64,000 bases of DNA from a virus (IMGVR_UViG_3300034152_000419:12829-76828), one strand, 5' to 3'. Shown: positions 55,646 to 59,492, counted from the stretch's first letter. The notes: generated by a model not told the origin, from the letters alone. Program-made: numbers and translations.

Positions 55646-56206
55646 TTATGTCGTTGTCGTTGTGGTTGTTGTTGTGGTTGTCGTTGTGACGAACGTGACC
55701 GTGAAAAACGGACTGTCAGGATTGTTCGCCGAATCGGACAGACCCTCACCCTCGAATGTCAGAATTTGCCATTCGTCGGAGATCAGGTTGAACGCCGCTC
55801 CGGGATTCAATGTGACTCTGTGAAATTCCCACGTCGCGTTCTCCCCGACCGGATTGTCGGAGACGAACTTGAGTGCATATTCCTTGTCGAGAACTGTGTT
55901 CGCATAGAGCACATTCGTCCCGGACAGTGTCGCTTTAAAAAACTTTTGCAAGTTTTTGATAGAGATCTCGTCCAGATCAAATGTCACTGTATATCCGGTT
56001 TCAAGGACGACGATCTTGTCCTTTTGCCGAGTTCCCGAACGCGAGGAAAAATGCTCAAGTCTCTCCTCCGTCACTTCGATTGAAAATGACGGACTGTTTC
56101 CGACATCAACCAGAGACGCCGGAGGAGTGTCGCCGACCCACTCGCCGATTGACAAAATTCCTTTTCCGAGCGAGTAAAGTTCAGTTGACGGACTTTGAAT
56201 GGGCAT
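55646..56206 (-). CDS. Major tail tube protein with Thr13 tail
   Basis: LGKG, DVGN, EHFSSRSG, DNPVG; position. Confidence 0.8.
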   Translation of the reverse strand: MPIQSPSTELYSLGKGILSIGEWVGDTPPASLVDVGNSPSFSIEVTEERLEHFSSRSGTRQKDKIVVLETGYTVTFDLDEISIKNLQKFFKATLSGTNVLYANTVLDKEYALKFVSDNPVGENATWEFHRVTLNPGAAFNLISDEWQILTFEGEGLSDSANNPDSPFFTVTFVTTTTTTTTTTTTT

Positions 56207-56221
56207 TTTTAAACCTCCTGT

Positions 56222-56650
56222 TTACAGTTGACTTGTGTCCTCAACATACCGGATCAGAACGGTCGTGCCGACTCCCGCAATATGAGAGCCGGATTCCGGT
56301 CGAAACACTCGCGAGTCTCCCGCCTCCTCGACAATCGCGTTGAGTCCCAGTGCGACAGGATCAGCATATAACTCCCGCCGAACCTCCGCATGTTTCTCCA
56401 TCAATTCCCGTGTCGCGAGGTCGTCAGAGGTCCCAGTGATGAAAACCTCGATGACCAGTCTGAGGGTCCTTTTGTATCTCGGTTTCCCTCCCCGTTGATC
56501 GGTCTCATCGACATCGCAGTTCAATTCGATGATCGAGATCATAGGGAGATCATCCTTTGACGGGACGTGATCGGGATTTCGATAAACATTCGCGATGACC
56601 TCACTCATCCGTTTTTCGATTTCCCGGACGATTGCCTCCCGTTTTTGCAT
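56222..56650 (-). CDS. Tail terminator
   Basis: RE.I...LP.I.I...D..LG...Y; position. Confidence 0.65.
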   Translation of the reverse strand: MQKREAIVREIEKRMSEVIANVYRNPDHVPSKDDLPMISIIELNCDVDETDQRGGKPRYKRTLRLVIEVFITGTSDDLATRELMEKHAEVRRELYADPVALGLNAIVEEAGDSRVFRPESGSHIAGVGTTVLIRYVEDTSQL

Positions 56651-56659
56651 CCGTCCCCC

Positions 56660-57076
56660 TTATAGCCGCGACATTTGTTGTTCGAGAGCCTGAGCAATTC
56701 CGACGATGATCGACTCGATCCGCGCCTGATCCTCAAGCAAAGGTCCGATAATTCCCCCCGGTGCTTGTCGTGAAAAAATCCCGTCCCCCTGTGCGACGGT
56801 TCGAGGACCGACTCCCGGATATCTCCCCTCCTCAAGGACTTCTGCATAATCTTTCGGATTCGAGAACGCAAAACCAGTCGATGTCCGTTCCACTTCTGAC
56901 CATGACTGTTTCATCCGGGGGGAGTTCGGTCTGATTCCGACCGGAGTCCTCCCGATCACAAGGTTCCTGAGAGTTGTCGCAATATCACGGACTGAGACCT
57001 CAATCGCCTCCGGGAGGTTATCGAAAATCCGTCGGACCTCTGCCTCGCCTAAAAATCTGACATTAGCGTCCAACAT
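56660..57076 (-). CDS. HK97 gp10-like tail completion protein
   Basis: RTPV, YA.VLE.G, SRQAP.G. Confidence 0.7.
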   Translation of the reverse strand: MLDANVRFLGEAEVRRIFDNLPEAIEVSVRDIATTLRNLVIGRTPVGIRPNSPRMKQSWSEVERTSTGFAFSNPKDYAEVLEEGRYPGVGPRTVAQGDGIFSRQAPGGIIGPLLEDQARIESIIVGIAQALEQQMSRL

Positions 57077-57458
57077 CGACAGAACCTCCCTTGACCGTGA
57101 CCGCGATTGCAAGATTAAAAATGTTTGTAATGTTTTGAATGTCCTGAGTCTGCTCGAACTCGTCAACGATCTCATCCTTGAGGGACATTCCCGACGGAGC
57201 GTCACGGTAATCGATCAAATAAAGTTGATCCCCGATCTGAATATTCGAGAATCCGACGAGTTTACTCCTGTCCGTGTGTTGCAGTCGAACCGCTTTGATC
57301 CGAAATGTTTTGAACTTTGTCACATTCGCTCCGACGCTCTCGTCAAACTCACGACTGAGATATTTCCGATATTGGATGAGCGATTGCAATCCCGGATCGT
57401 TGACCAGTTCTTTGATCACCGCTCGAACAGGAGATTCGATCTGTTTATAGATTGCCAT
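57063..57458 (-). CDS. Head closure protein
   Basis: Position and size; IQIGD. Confidence 0.55.
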   Translation of the reverse strand: MAIYKQIESPVRAVIKELVNDPGLQSLIQYRKYLSREFDESVGANVTKFKTFRIKAVRLQHTDRSKLVGFSNIQIGDQLYLIDYRDAPSGMSLKDEIVDEFEQTQDIQNITNIFNLAIAVTVKGGSVDVGR

Positions 57459-57472
57459 GATTCACCGACGGT

Positions 57473-57664
57473 TTAAGTTGTCGTCGTTGTGGTCGTTGTG
57501 GTTGTGGTTGTCGTTGTCGTCGTTGTCGGATAGTAAACTTTCGTTTTATCCGTCCCCGGAGAGATCGCAGATCCGTGACGGTCCTTTGACATTCCGACGG
57601 GACCCGTCATTTTCTGCGCCTTGCCGACGAACCCGACACGTTTTCCCGGTTTCCCGACTGCCAT
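57473..57664 (-). CDS. Small protein with Thr17 tail
   Basis: RBS GGAGG; 63 aa. Confidence 0.7.
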   Translation of the reverse strand: MAVGKPGKRVGFVGKAQKMTGPVGMSKDRHGSAISPGTDKTKVYYPTTTTTTTTTTTTTTTTT

Positions 57665-57676
57665 GTTTCACCTCCG

Positions 57677-58261
57677 TCAGGTTGTCGTTGTGGTTGTCGT
57701 TGTCGTTGTGGTTGTCATGCACGGAGTCAGTTCATCCGTATTTTTCAGAGACCCGCCCCTGAACGACGTCAAGAACTTTGTCATCGTCAGATATGCGGGA
57801 AACTGTGAGGACCTGATCATCCGATCAAGTGCCGATCCGGTTGTGACCGGACTCCCTGCGAATGACACTGACAAGAGTCCTCCGAGTGAAACACTTGAGA
57901 CTCTCGAACCGGATTCTCCCTCCGAGGCGGATTCAGGACGATTGACGAGACCTCTGTGAATCACGGAATATGCCATGAACACTTGAGTCTGCTTGACCTC
58001 GTCCGGGATCTCATGGAAATCATTTTGAACGGTTCGCGGGAAACAGAGAGCCTGTCCGCAAAAAACACGATCCCCCTTTAATGGGAGATAGGACATCGCC
58101 TGAGCCGCGAGGATGAGACGATATTCCTTTTGACCGTCCTCAAGATCATCCCACTCATCGGGAGAGTCGGGAAAACCGTCCTCCGCGATGATATCGTCTG
58201 CCTCGTCGAGAGTGACAAAAGAGTTCGACTCCCGTCCGCCGATTTTCGTGATCAGTGACAT
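57677..58261 (-). CDS. Head-tail adaptor with Thr12 tail
   Basis: NSFVTL.EAD, QAL.FPR, IP.EVK. Confidence 0.75.
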   Translation of the reverse strand: MSLITKIGGRESNSFVTLDEADDIIAEDGFPDSPDEWDDLEDGQKEYRLILAAQAMSYLPLKGDRVFCGQALCFPRTVQNDFHEIPDEVKQTQVFMAYSVIHRGLVNRPESASEGESGSRVSSVSLGGLLSVSFAGSPVTTGSALDRMIRSSQFPAYLTMTKFLTSFRGGSLKNTDELTPCMTTTTTTTTTTTT

Positions 58262-58518
58262 TTTGTCGCCTCAATGAGTCTCCTCTGAGTGATCCGCCGA
58301 GGACCCGTTTCAACTTGAGCCTCATCCGAGACGATGACCGTGTCGAGATCCGTGACCGTGAACATGGGATCGCCTTTTCGGTCTGTCATCTTTTGACAAT
58401 GCAGAGCGACAGCGACCGGGACCTCTTGAGGATCTCCTCCCCGGAAAAAGTATTTCACCCGCCCGAACAAAATTGTCCGATTGTTCGTCGGATGTGCGTT
58501 GAGCGTCACTTTCGGCAT
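58252..58518 (-). CDS. Small head-associated protein
   Basis: Follows the capsid gene; 88 aa. Confidence 0.6.
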   Translation of the reverse strand: MPKVTLNAHPTNNRTILFGRVKYFFRGGDPQEVPVAVALHCQKMTDRKGDPMFTVTDLDTVIVSDEAQVETGPRRITQRRLIEATKCH

Positions 58519-58556
58519 TTGAAACCTCTCAGTCAGTTGTCAACGATCAACAACCA

Positions 58557-59492
58557 TTAGGTCGTTGTCGTCGTCGGATTCGGTTGCAGTCCGAGGATTT
58601 TCACGACGGAATCCTCCTCCTCGAACTTGATATCCATCCGCATCGTGAGGACGACGATCAGCACACGTGCACGAATATCGCGGTCGGTCTCGATCATGAT
58701 CTGACGTTGAACGCCGAACACAATATTCTGAGGCCACGTGAAAATTGCTTTGTCGTCCGGCATCAATGCGACCGGATCGATGGGGACGCCGAACGCGACC
58801 TCCGGTGCTTTCCGAGCAATCCGAGCATCGCCGAGTTGAGTCTCACGGTCCGAGAGATGATCCGTGTATTCGATCTCGGCATCCACGGAGGTGAAAAACC
58901 GCATCATCGAGCGATTCCGCAGATACTTTGACGGCATCGCCTTGATCGCATCTTTGAAAACGGTTTTCGTGATCCCGACCGGACTCGCCGAATAATCAAC
59001 GACGTGTGACGATGCTTGTTCGAGGATTCCGTCCACGAGTGCGAGATAATCATCACCCGATCCGGTGTCGCCGGAGATGATCAACTCCTCGACGTCGAGG
59101 GATGCTCTCTCTGCAATCAGGGACATGACGGTGTCCTCAAGTCTCCCCCGCTCGATATTGTCCTCAAGGACATCATAAGGGAGATGAACCTCCGCGATGA
59201 CCTCTTTCGTCGCGAGTTCGACCTTTTCAGTCGTCGGTTTTGATCGGTCCGCCGCCGCGAGTGCGGTTCCGCTTGCCGGAGCTTTTTTCAAAATCCGGGA
59301 CGTGAAACCGATCTTGTTGATTTCCATTGTCGGAGCGTTCATCGGGACGACCCGAACCTGATTCAGGATCGTCGGTTGATCAATCATAAGACGGATGAAC
59401 ACATTTGCTTGCATCGGATTGAGATATCCGCCGTCACTGATCAGATCGGAAACCGCGATGTCCGCTTTTTCGAGGATGTCTCGTGTTCGCAT
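58557..59492 (-). CDS. Major capsid protein (HK97 fold, XkdG-like) with Thr5 tail
   Basis: GGYLNP.Q...F, LEDNIE, D.EEL...GD, MP.KY. Confidence 0.85.

Follow-up and report, generated by a model that had tools for sequence, protein, structure and literature searches.

In the mycobacteriophages Che8 and Corndog, the phage itself makes glycans that are found on capsid and tail-tube subunits at their C-termini (Freeman et al. 2023, Cell Host Microbe 31:1216, as cited in PMC12619734). Here, we describe a candidate system of comparable design in an uncultured phage from soil or sediment metagenomes. The DNA analyzed, referred to as the window, is a stretch of 64,000 nucleotides that corresponds to bases 12829-76828 of the 76.8-kb IMG/VR virus record IMGVR_UViG_3300034152_000419, which is estimated to be 74% complete. 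Four of its genes for head, neck and tail proteins end in Thr runs (hereafter poly-Thr tails), and a module at 27.7-31.3 kb encodes two glycosyltransferases (GTs), one of the GT-A type (family GT2) and one of the GT4-type with a GT-B fold, together with a 132-amino acid (aa) protein. We discuss the tails as putative acceptor tags for O-glycosylation by these enzymes.

The Che8/Corndog system and the window share phage-encoded glycosyltransferases and methyltransferases, as well as C-terminal Ser/Thr residues on capsid and tail-tube proteins alike (runs of 5 and 13 Thr, T5 and T13, in the window). However, the Che8 capsid ends in ...NKTGS and the Che8 major tail protein in ...YSDGS, with one or two terminal Ser/Thr, whereas the tails described here are homopolymers of 5-17 Thr. 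Unlike in Che8, the tag is also present on a head-tail adaptor and a 63-aa protein and, in relatives of the window, on up to eight tail, baseplate and fibre proteins. The enzymes are not homologous: Che8 gp108-110 are a GT2(DxD)-methyltransferase fusion, a GT2-like protein and a GT25, and hhalign comparisons with these three proteins gave probabilities of 0.2-2.8%. The window also belongs to another phage lineage, found in soil/sediment metagenomes, and its glycans are predicted, whereas Che8-type glycans have been demonstrated. The first-pass annotation of the window had held that no tag-plus-enzyme system of this kind was described, which was too strong, as C-terminal capsid and tail-tube glycans of mycobacteriophages are known (PMC12619734). 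A limited literature search found no description of poly-Thr or Thr-rich phage tails, or of phage enzymes resembling N-acetylgalactosaminyl (GalNAc) transferases. Phage virion glycosylation itself is already known, and the poly-Thr tag in combination with this enzyme set looks to be the undescribed part.

Animal mucin-type O-glycosylation, which involves polypeptide GalNAc-transferases (ppGalNAc-Ts, family GT27) that favor Thr over Ser, resembles the window system in that a GT-A domain with a DxH motif, joined in the window by a possible Gal/GalNAc-T-like motif, is combined with dense Thr tracts, which in the window are proposed acceptors. In contrast to the GT27 system, the window system has no ricin-type lectin domain, membrane anchor or secretory pathway, and its tails are short (5-17 residues), purely Thr and devoid of Pro. 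In Gram-positive bacteria, long Ser/Thr tracts of serine-rich repeat adhesins are O-glycosylated in the cytoplasm by a soluble GT4-type GT-B enzyme and a small partner (GtfA/GtfB). A soluble GT4-type GT-B enzyme, a candidate small partner protein and a low-complexity Ser/Thr tract also occur in the window, but here the tract lies at the C-terminus, an export system is absent and the substrates would be proteins of the virion. Chloroviruses and giant viruses, with their virus-encoded capsid glycosylation (PMC9614988, PMC5408694), differ in that they are eukaryotic viruses whose glycans are not known to be placed on C-terminal poly-Thr tags and whose enzymes are unrelated to those of the window. 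Like the window, they supply their own soluble glycosyltransferases and sugar-modifying enzymes, and their major capsid protein is decorated in the cytoplasm, as is proposed here.

Poly-threonine tails of virion proteins

Almost every gene of the window is encoded on the minus strand. Genes for the neck, terminator, chaperone and tape measure follow each other in the customary order. Four minus-strand open reading frames (ORFs) end in pure Thr (T5, T12, T17 and T13), with the stop codon directly after each run:

58557-59492, minus strand, major capsid protein, 311 aa; T5 at 58560-58574; PF05065 (9e-8) and phrog_1623 (8e-106)
57677-58261, minus strand, head-tail adaptor of the Ad1 type, 194 aa; T12 at 57680-57715; PF20557 (7e-13) and phrog_477 (3e-15)
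57473-57664, minus strand, basic, Gly-rich protein, 63 aa; T17 at 57476-57526; no family match
55646-56206, minus strand, tail tube protein, 186 aa; T13 at 55649-55687; phrog_807, "major tail protein with Ig-like domain" (2e-28)

These four runs before stop codons had been reported in the first-pass annotation, and ORF translation reproduced them exactly; its names for the capsid, adaptor and tail-tube genes were borne out by the PF05065, phrog_1623, phrog_477 and phrog_807 matches. Pfam and PHROG searches identified no family for the 63-aa ORF, which fits snugly between the adaptor stop codon and the start of the following gene. A six-frame scan of the whole 64 kb revealed no Thr runs of at least 5 residues besides the four C-terminal tails, and the sole further T4 is internal (62028-62039). 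At the Thr frequency of the protein bodies (0.0555), chance would give ~0.07 runs of T5 or longer over the six frames, and the expected number of proteins with a T5 end is 5e-5; in within-protein shuffles, only 3 of 2000 yielded even one protein ending in TTTTT. The tails are encoded by interleaved ACA, ACG and ACC codons and one ACT, and the same codon is never repeated more than three times in succession.

Five genomes were compared, namely the window and four relatives that were fetched whole (G001, G002, G004 and G005). Each relative encodes 4-8 tailed virion proteins, and at least 16 non-homologous virion protein families carry tails across the five genomes, including 424-, 756-, 916- and 1218-aa proteins downstream of the tape measure. 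The same tails were found in genomes of 38-50% GC, with Thr codons following the usage of each genome; the relatives compared in this respect have 38-47% GC. A Thr run ends all 15 of the 15 IMG/VR homologues of the tail-tube protein (47-67% identity), in some cases followed by a single V, A, E or S. Among the 120 best database clusters of this protein (54-90% identity), 113 have a tail of T4 or longer and the remaining 7 end in TT, TTT or mixed Ser/Thr; Ser/Thr tail length across these clusters is 2-24, with a median of 7. The adaptor orthologue of G001 (53% identity) has a Ser/Thr tail of ~35 residues, and the position of the 63-aa ORF, ~2 kb upstream of the tail-tube gene, is occupied in relatives by unrelated poly-Thr-tailed ORFs of 50-60 aa. 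The window capsid ends in T5 and its G001 orthologue (71% identical) in ...NDAPTTTV. Five cultured capsid homologues (VH2_2019, B83, DLP_5, RcZahn and SIO-2; 50-53% identity) end at the equivalent of ...LGLQPNP, one residue before the start of the tail.

A soil-metagenome contig provided a closer comparison, matching positions 55400-59600 at 96.3% identity over 4.2 kb with 154 substitutions. No indels were present in the four tails of this strain, and a substitution inside the tail-tube tail, at 55685, is synonymous. Its only indels are a 1-base deletion and a compensating insertion within 6 bases in the tail-terminator gene (56519-56524). Because the tails contain no indels at 3.7% nucleotide divergence and the substitution is synonymous, the tracts do not behave as hypermutable slippage sites. 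The mixed codons had already been read in the first-pass annotation as a sign of protein-level selection, and both the codon mix and the stability of the tails in this strain agree with that view. Judging by these alignments, the tails are under peptide-level selection, and their length drifts once sequences are more distantly related. Because it is appended at the C-terminus, the tag can appear on, or vanish from, any exposed virion protein and leave the fold unchanged.

Several other observations concern the tracts themselves. ORFs ending in T10 plus stop also occur on giant-virus (GVMAG) and other unrelated viral contigs (L104, L171, L144 and L142), and therefore C-terminal poly-Thr is not confined to this phage lineage. 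In G050 and G053 (L221, L218/L219), internal Thr runs are found 115-190 residues from the end of 890-1796-aa tail proteins, which means that such a tract can serve as a linker inside a protein as well. Short unrelated soil-metagenome contigs stack on the three long (ACN)n tracts of the window (55541-55681, 57374-57514 and 57656-57796), with a summed depth of up to 1100 versus a background of 7-16, and poly-Thr-coding DNA seems to be common in those soil samples. A perfect 16-base palindrome, GTGCACACGTGTGCAC, is located at 55627-55642 and begins 4 bases past the tail-tube stop codon.

The glycosyltransferase module and its association with the tails

The module at 27.7-31.3 kb, which adjoins an NlpC/P60 lysin gene, consists of five genes:

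27723-28712, minus strand, soluble GT-A glycosyltransferase (GT2), 329 aa; PF00535 (2e-14)
28705-29103, minus strand, 132-aa protein, always beside the GT2 gene
29107-29730, minus strand, methyltransferase by Pfam methyltransferase matches, in a variable slot
29727-30062, minus strand, 111-aa protein, in the variable slot
30053-31345, minus strand, GT4-type GT-B glycosyltransferase, 430 aa, by a weak Pfam GT4 signal, fold and EX7E motif

A BLASTP synteny table showed that the genes common to all five genomes are the tail tube, tape measure, a polymerase-like gene, one 530-aa gene and an enzyme trio; the capsid gene is not among them. The trio is composed of the GT2, the 132-aa protein and the 430-aa protein, with 37-48% identity (30-46% for the 132-aa protein). 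As a guide to the host, relatives of the module enzyme were seen only in contigs of metagenome-assembled genomes (Deltaproteobacteria, Desulfobacteraceae, Thermodesulfobacteriota, Brocadiaceae, Bacteroidales and archaeal bins). A tblastn search of 50,697 cultured phage records detected a homologue of the GT2 or the 430-aa enzyme in none of them.

When a GT2 profile was compared with all PDB sequences, 8 of the 12 matches were polypeptide GalNAc-transferases, the best being GalNAc-T10 (2d7i, 7e-8). D110-G-H112 (DxH) is invariant in the five GT2 sequences and aligns to the DSH of GalNAc-T10, and the segment IYGGGENF aligns to IWGGEQYE of T10, which contains the WGGE motif. Structural neighbours of the GT2 in the Atlas include animal ppGalNAc-Ts, with template modeling (TM) scores of 0.75-0.77 over ~290 residues; other Atlas neighbours are bacterial and viral GT2 clusters that carry Glyco_transf_7C (PF02709). 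A search with PF02709 itself scored none of the five GT2 members. Because of this and because a lectin domain is absent, the sequence is best described as that of a ppGalNAc-T-like enzyme and not of a GT27 member. No transmembrane or hydrophobic segments were found in any of the enzymes, the GT2 included. The GT2 family comprises 694 clusters in the metagenome protein collection.

The GT2 and 132-aa genes are always adjacent or overlapping, though their order is swapped between G000/G001 and G002/G004/G005 (also L029, L034, L040 and L043). Adjacency that is kept despite the inverted order suggests that the two proteins are a functional pair, possibly a two-subunit enzyme. Searches with the 132-aa protein returned no Pfam, NCBIfam, PHROG or usable Atlas match. 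The model of the 430-aa protein has a predicted local distance difference test (pLDDT) value of 93 and a two-Rossmann GT-B fold. By fold it matches BshA, MshA, GlgM and sucrose-phosphate synthase (E values of 1e-13 to 1e-12, probability 1.0), with BshA/MshA/GlgM at the top (1e-13); GtfA-type structures are absent from its top 50 fold matches. The EX7E motif of its C-terminal domain (E326, E334) is invariant in 30 sequences.

Differing genes fill the space between the two conserved transferases. Neither the methyltransferase at 29107-29730 nor the 111-aa protein has homologues in the four relatives, whose genes in that slot encode hexapeptide acyltransferases, a Glyco_trans_1_2 protein, a GT9-methyltransferase fusion, methyltransferases and a sulfotransferase-like protein. 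From this gene content, the 27.7-31.3 kb region appears to be a conserved core with a variable tailoring slot. A second set of candidate sugar-modifying genes and an adjacent low-complexity protein are located further along the window:

39543-43544, minus strand, genome-specific tailoring cassette of cupin, methyltransferase, Stealth-CR2-like, GH130-like and sulfotransferase genes
43557-44006, minus strand, 149-aa protein with a coiled coil and a (SP)22S end, immediately upstream of that cassette

The Pfam matches of the cassette are Cupin_2 (7e-8), Methyltransf_11 (8e-10), Stealth_CR2 (8e-7, below the cut-off), GH130 (8e-7) and Sulfotransfer_4 (6e-27). The first-pass annotation had assigned the enzymes of both regions to the tails. 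The 27.7-31.3 kb module is indeed conserved together with the tails, whereas the cassette is unique to this genome among the five, and because of this it may at most serve strain-specific tailoring, its tie to the tails being conjectural. The 149-aa protein has only coiled-coil Pfam and PHROG matches and may be a fifth acceptor of another kind, for an O-glycan or a phosphoglycan. The surrounding region, 31398-52159, stretches from the enzyme module to the tape measure gene. Its ~20 kb, in which the genes presumably serve baseplate, fibres and tailoring, have hardly any homologue in the four relatives and form the most variable part of the genome.

We examined the co-occurrence of tails and enzymes in IMG/VR with a profile of the 430-aa family, which detected 53 loci; a scan with the single 430-aa sequence gave no match. 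A GT2 was found no more than 10 kb from the 430-aa enzyme gene in 37 of the 53 loci, and most of the others are severed by contig ends. A Ser/Thr-tailed ORF was present within 10 kb at 30 of the 53 GT4-like loci. When the other 22 records were checked whole, (ACN)6 runs were found in 13, all on one strand, including 6 of the 6 records that are at least 90% complete; the 9 records without an (ACN)6 run are 21-60% complete. C-terminal tails of ORFs were confirmed in regions from G043, G046, G048, G050, G053 and G012. As a result, tails are present in 10 of the 10 module-bearing records that are at least 90% complete (G002, G004, G005, G012, G043, G046, G048, G050, G053 and G058). G058 had been a candidate for a near-complete genome with the enzyme but no tail, and was rejected as such, as Ser/Thr-rich tails are present on 1583-aa and 365-aa proteins just upstream of its enzyme. 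Neither a GT2 match nor a tail was present in the five cultured phages whose capsid proteins are closest (one lone (ACN)6 site was found, in RcZahn). Fisher's test of tails versus module gave p = 3e-4, for genomes that are related and hence not independent. A reverse scan of IMG/VR for the T10-stop pattern found a GT4-like gene in 5 of 23 records with a real tailed ORF versus 0 of 14 noise records, most of these records being fragments that are 8-58% complete, which makes the comparison uninformative. The co-occurrence of tails and the GT cluster among homologues, which the first-pass annotation had named as a check, is supported by the ten tailed near-complete genomes and by the cultured capsid homologues, which have neither. 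Tails in relatives lacking GTs, which it had named as contrary evidence, were not seen: we found no relative with tails and without the enzymes.

Possible exposure of the tails and competing explanations

The tail tube protein of the window matches the tail tube of YSD1/Chi (PDB 6xgr/8vhx) by phmmer (2e-14) and Foldseek (1.9e-8, query-normalized TM score 0.62), with a model pLDDT of only 60. In YSD1, the tube domain continues C-terminally into a flexible external Big_1 domain (D3) that is held at a distance from the tube (PMC7385642). Relatives of the tail tube are likewise annotated "with Ig-like domain" in PHROG and GenBank. In the window, T13 stands in place of the Big_1 domain, and because it occupies the position of this external domain of YSD1, it should project from the tail surface. 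Both extensions are located at the C-terminus of a homologous tube domain and would be outward, flexible and dispensable surface decorations. However, the decoration of YSD1/Chi is a folded domain that may bind carbohydrate, whereas the 13-residue Thr tail would itself carry carbohydrate. Surface exposure of the C-termini, another check named in the first-pass annotation, is therefore supported for the tail tube, whose tail sits where YSD1 has its external domain, and not for the capsid and adaptor, which are without a solved homologue.

In the reading that we favor, and regard as fairly likely, the poly-Thr tails are acceptor tags written into the virion genes, on which enzymes of the phage build O-glycans in the cytoplasm of the host, either prior to assembly or while it takes place. 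This reading fits the co-occurrence, the type of enzyme, the exposure and the precedent. It starts from what is observed, namely the tails, their selection and conservation, the folds and motifs of the enzymes and the co-occurrence of the two. From these we infer a possible route, in which the use of the tails as substrate, the sugars, the order of enzyme action and the benefit are all provisional. First, the GT-A enzyme (27723-28712) would place the first sugar, probably an N-acetylhexosamine (HexNAc), on the Thr hydroxyls of the tails, and its co-conserved 132-aa neighbour may assist it. The GT4-type GT-B enzyme (30053-31345) would then add a second sugar or lengthen the chain. Variable genes, here the slot methyltransferase and the cupin/methyltransferase/Stealth-like/GH130-like/sulfotransferase cassette, would finally methylate, acylate, sulfate or phosphoglycosylate the glycan. 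The outcome would be a dense, strain-variable glycan brush over head, neck and tail, and the benefit might be shielding from adsorption, proteases or defence, or else adhesion.

Several points weigh against the acceptor-tag reading. The phage is uncultured, and its glycans are predicted from genes. The likeness of the GT2 to ppGalNAc-Ts is moderate (E value of 7e-8) and generic GT2 similarity is equally strong; only the catalytic domain of the 329-aa protein aligns, and it lacks the lectin domain and membrane anchor that true GT27 enzymes have. Mucin acceptor regions are Pro-rich, whereas the tails consist of Thr and nothing else, and the only Pro-rich sequence is in the separate (SP)22 protein, not in the four tails. 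Five loci with full flanks have no GT2 within 10 kb of the 430-aa enzyme gene, and conservation with the tails does not extend to the 39543-43544 cassette, which is without homologues in G001, G002, G004 and G005. One lineage could also combine tails and enzymes as unconnected traits: the tail-tube family has tailed members throughout, which leaves no tail-less internal control, and the Fisher test ignores phylogeny. With regard to exposure, HK97-fold capsid proteins have external C-termini in the surface-display systems of T7 and P22; the window capsid has no solved homologue in the PDB by single sequence or profile, and its C-terminus is only presumed to be exposed. The adaptor also has no solved homologue in a PDB sequence search, and its C-terminus could be buried, at least partly, against the portal.

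The explanation that competes best is that the tails are unmodified, serving as hydrophilic flexible bristles or spacers against sticking to particles or soil surfaces, or as short beta-strand "zippers" between subunits, while the enzymes act on the host envelope or on DNA. This would agree with a modification that is as yet a prediction, with the lack of the Pro typical of mucin acceptor regions, and with the position of the module beside the NlpC/P60 lysin gene; in addition, phage GT2/GT4 enzymes often target host O-antigen or DNA (PMC12619734). However, membrane segments, which seroconversion enzymes of the GtrB or polymerase type possess, are missing from these enzymes, and the 74%-complete genome yielded no thymidylate-synthase-like hydroxymethylase and thus no sign of a base to glycosylate, although this is weak evidence. 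Bare tails also leave unexplained why the enzyme trio is kept together with tails across genomes whose capsid genes no longer align, and why capsid homologues without GTs are also tail-less. We consider this explanation unlikely, though it deserves to be kept in mind.

It is considerably less probable that the tails accept another modification, such as phosphorylation, which would produce a polyanionic brush, or a sugar-1-phosphate transferred by the Stealth-like enzyme. Thr hydroxyls are also targets of kinases, and the cassette does contain a Stealth_CR2-like gene, with a match below the family cut-off. However, this gene has no homologue in the four relatives, and the MuF protein (17313-20300) has one in G001 only, whereas the tails are universal; the genes that track the tails are glycosyltransferases. 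Finally, the runs could be DNA-level products that do nothing in the protein, stemming from trinucleotide slippage or from artefacts of assembly, or remaining as linkers after the loss of C-terminal domains. This explanation would account for the change over time implied by tail lengths of 2-24 Ser/Thr among homologues and for the Ig-like domain at this tail-tube end in Chi-like relatives, but it is close to refuted by the mixed codons, the lack of tail indels at 3.7% divergence, the presence of tails in independent assemblies from many samples, runs that always stop at the stop codon of the coding strand, tails in essentially all tail-tube family members and in at least 16 unrelated families, and a chance expectation of only ~0.07 runs.

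A possible glycan coat of environmental phages

To our knowledge, actinobacteriophages are the only phages shown to glycosylate their virions with enzymes of their own, and there the modification alters antibody recognition. The particle of the virus described here is probably sugar-coated as well, because Thr tails on the capsid, neck and tail tube are accompanied by a conserved pair of sugar-adding enzymes, one of which is ppGalNAc-T-like. A more specific and more doubtful proposal, which we offer tentatively, is that environmental siphophages possess a self-contained minimal mucin-type system that operates in the bacterial cytoplasm and consists of the poly-Thr tag, a lectin-less ppGalNAc-T-like enzyme with its 132-aa helper, a GT4 extender and swappable methylation, acylation and sulfation genes. 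Such a system would give rise to a strain-specific, possibly sulfated glycocalyx on head, neck, tail and fibres.

If this is true, mucin-type O-glycosylation would have a counterpart in the bacterial cytoplasm, based on an enzyme that resembles the animal initiators. A short peptide tag, or a tag-plus-enzyme kit, might then become available for cytoplasmic glycoengineering, and glycosylated phages would be predictable from genomes by the rule of a C-terminal Thr run plus the enzyme pair. It would also raise the question of the role of a glycan brush in soil, be it in adsorption, desiccation, evasion of proteases and defence, or adhesion. Glycosylation of the tails, if real, would further imply that virions with a sugar coat are widespread among the uncultured phages of soil and sediment, given that the GT2 family alone accounts for 694 database clusters.

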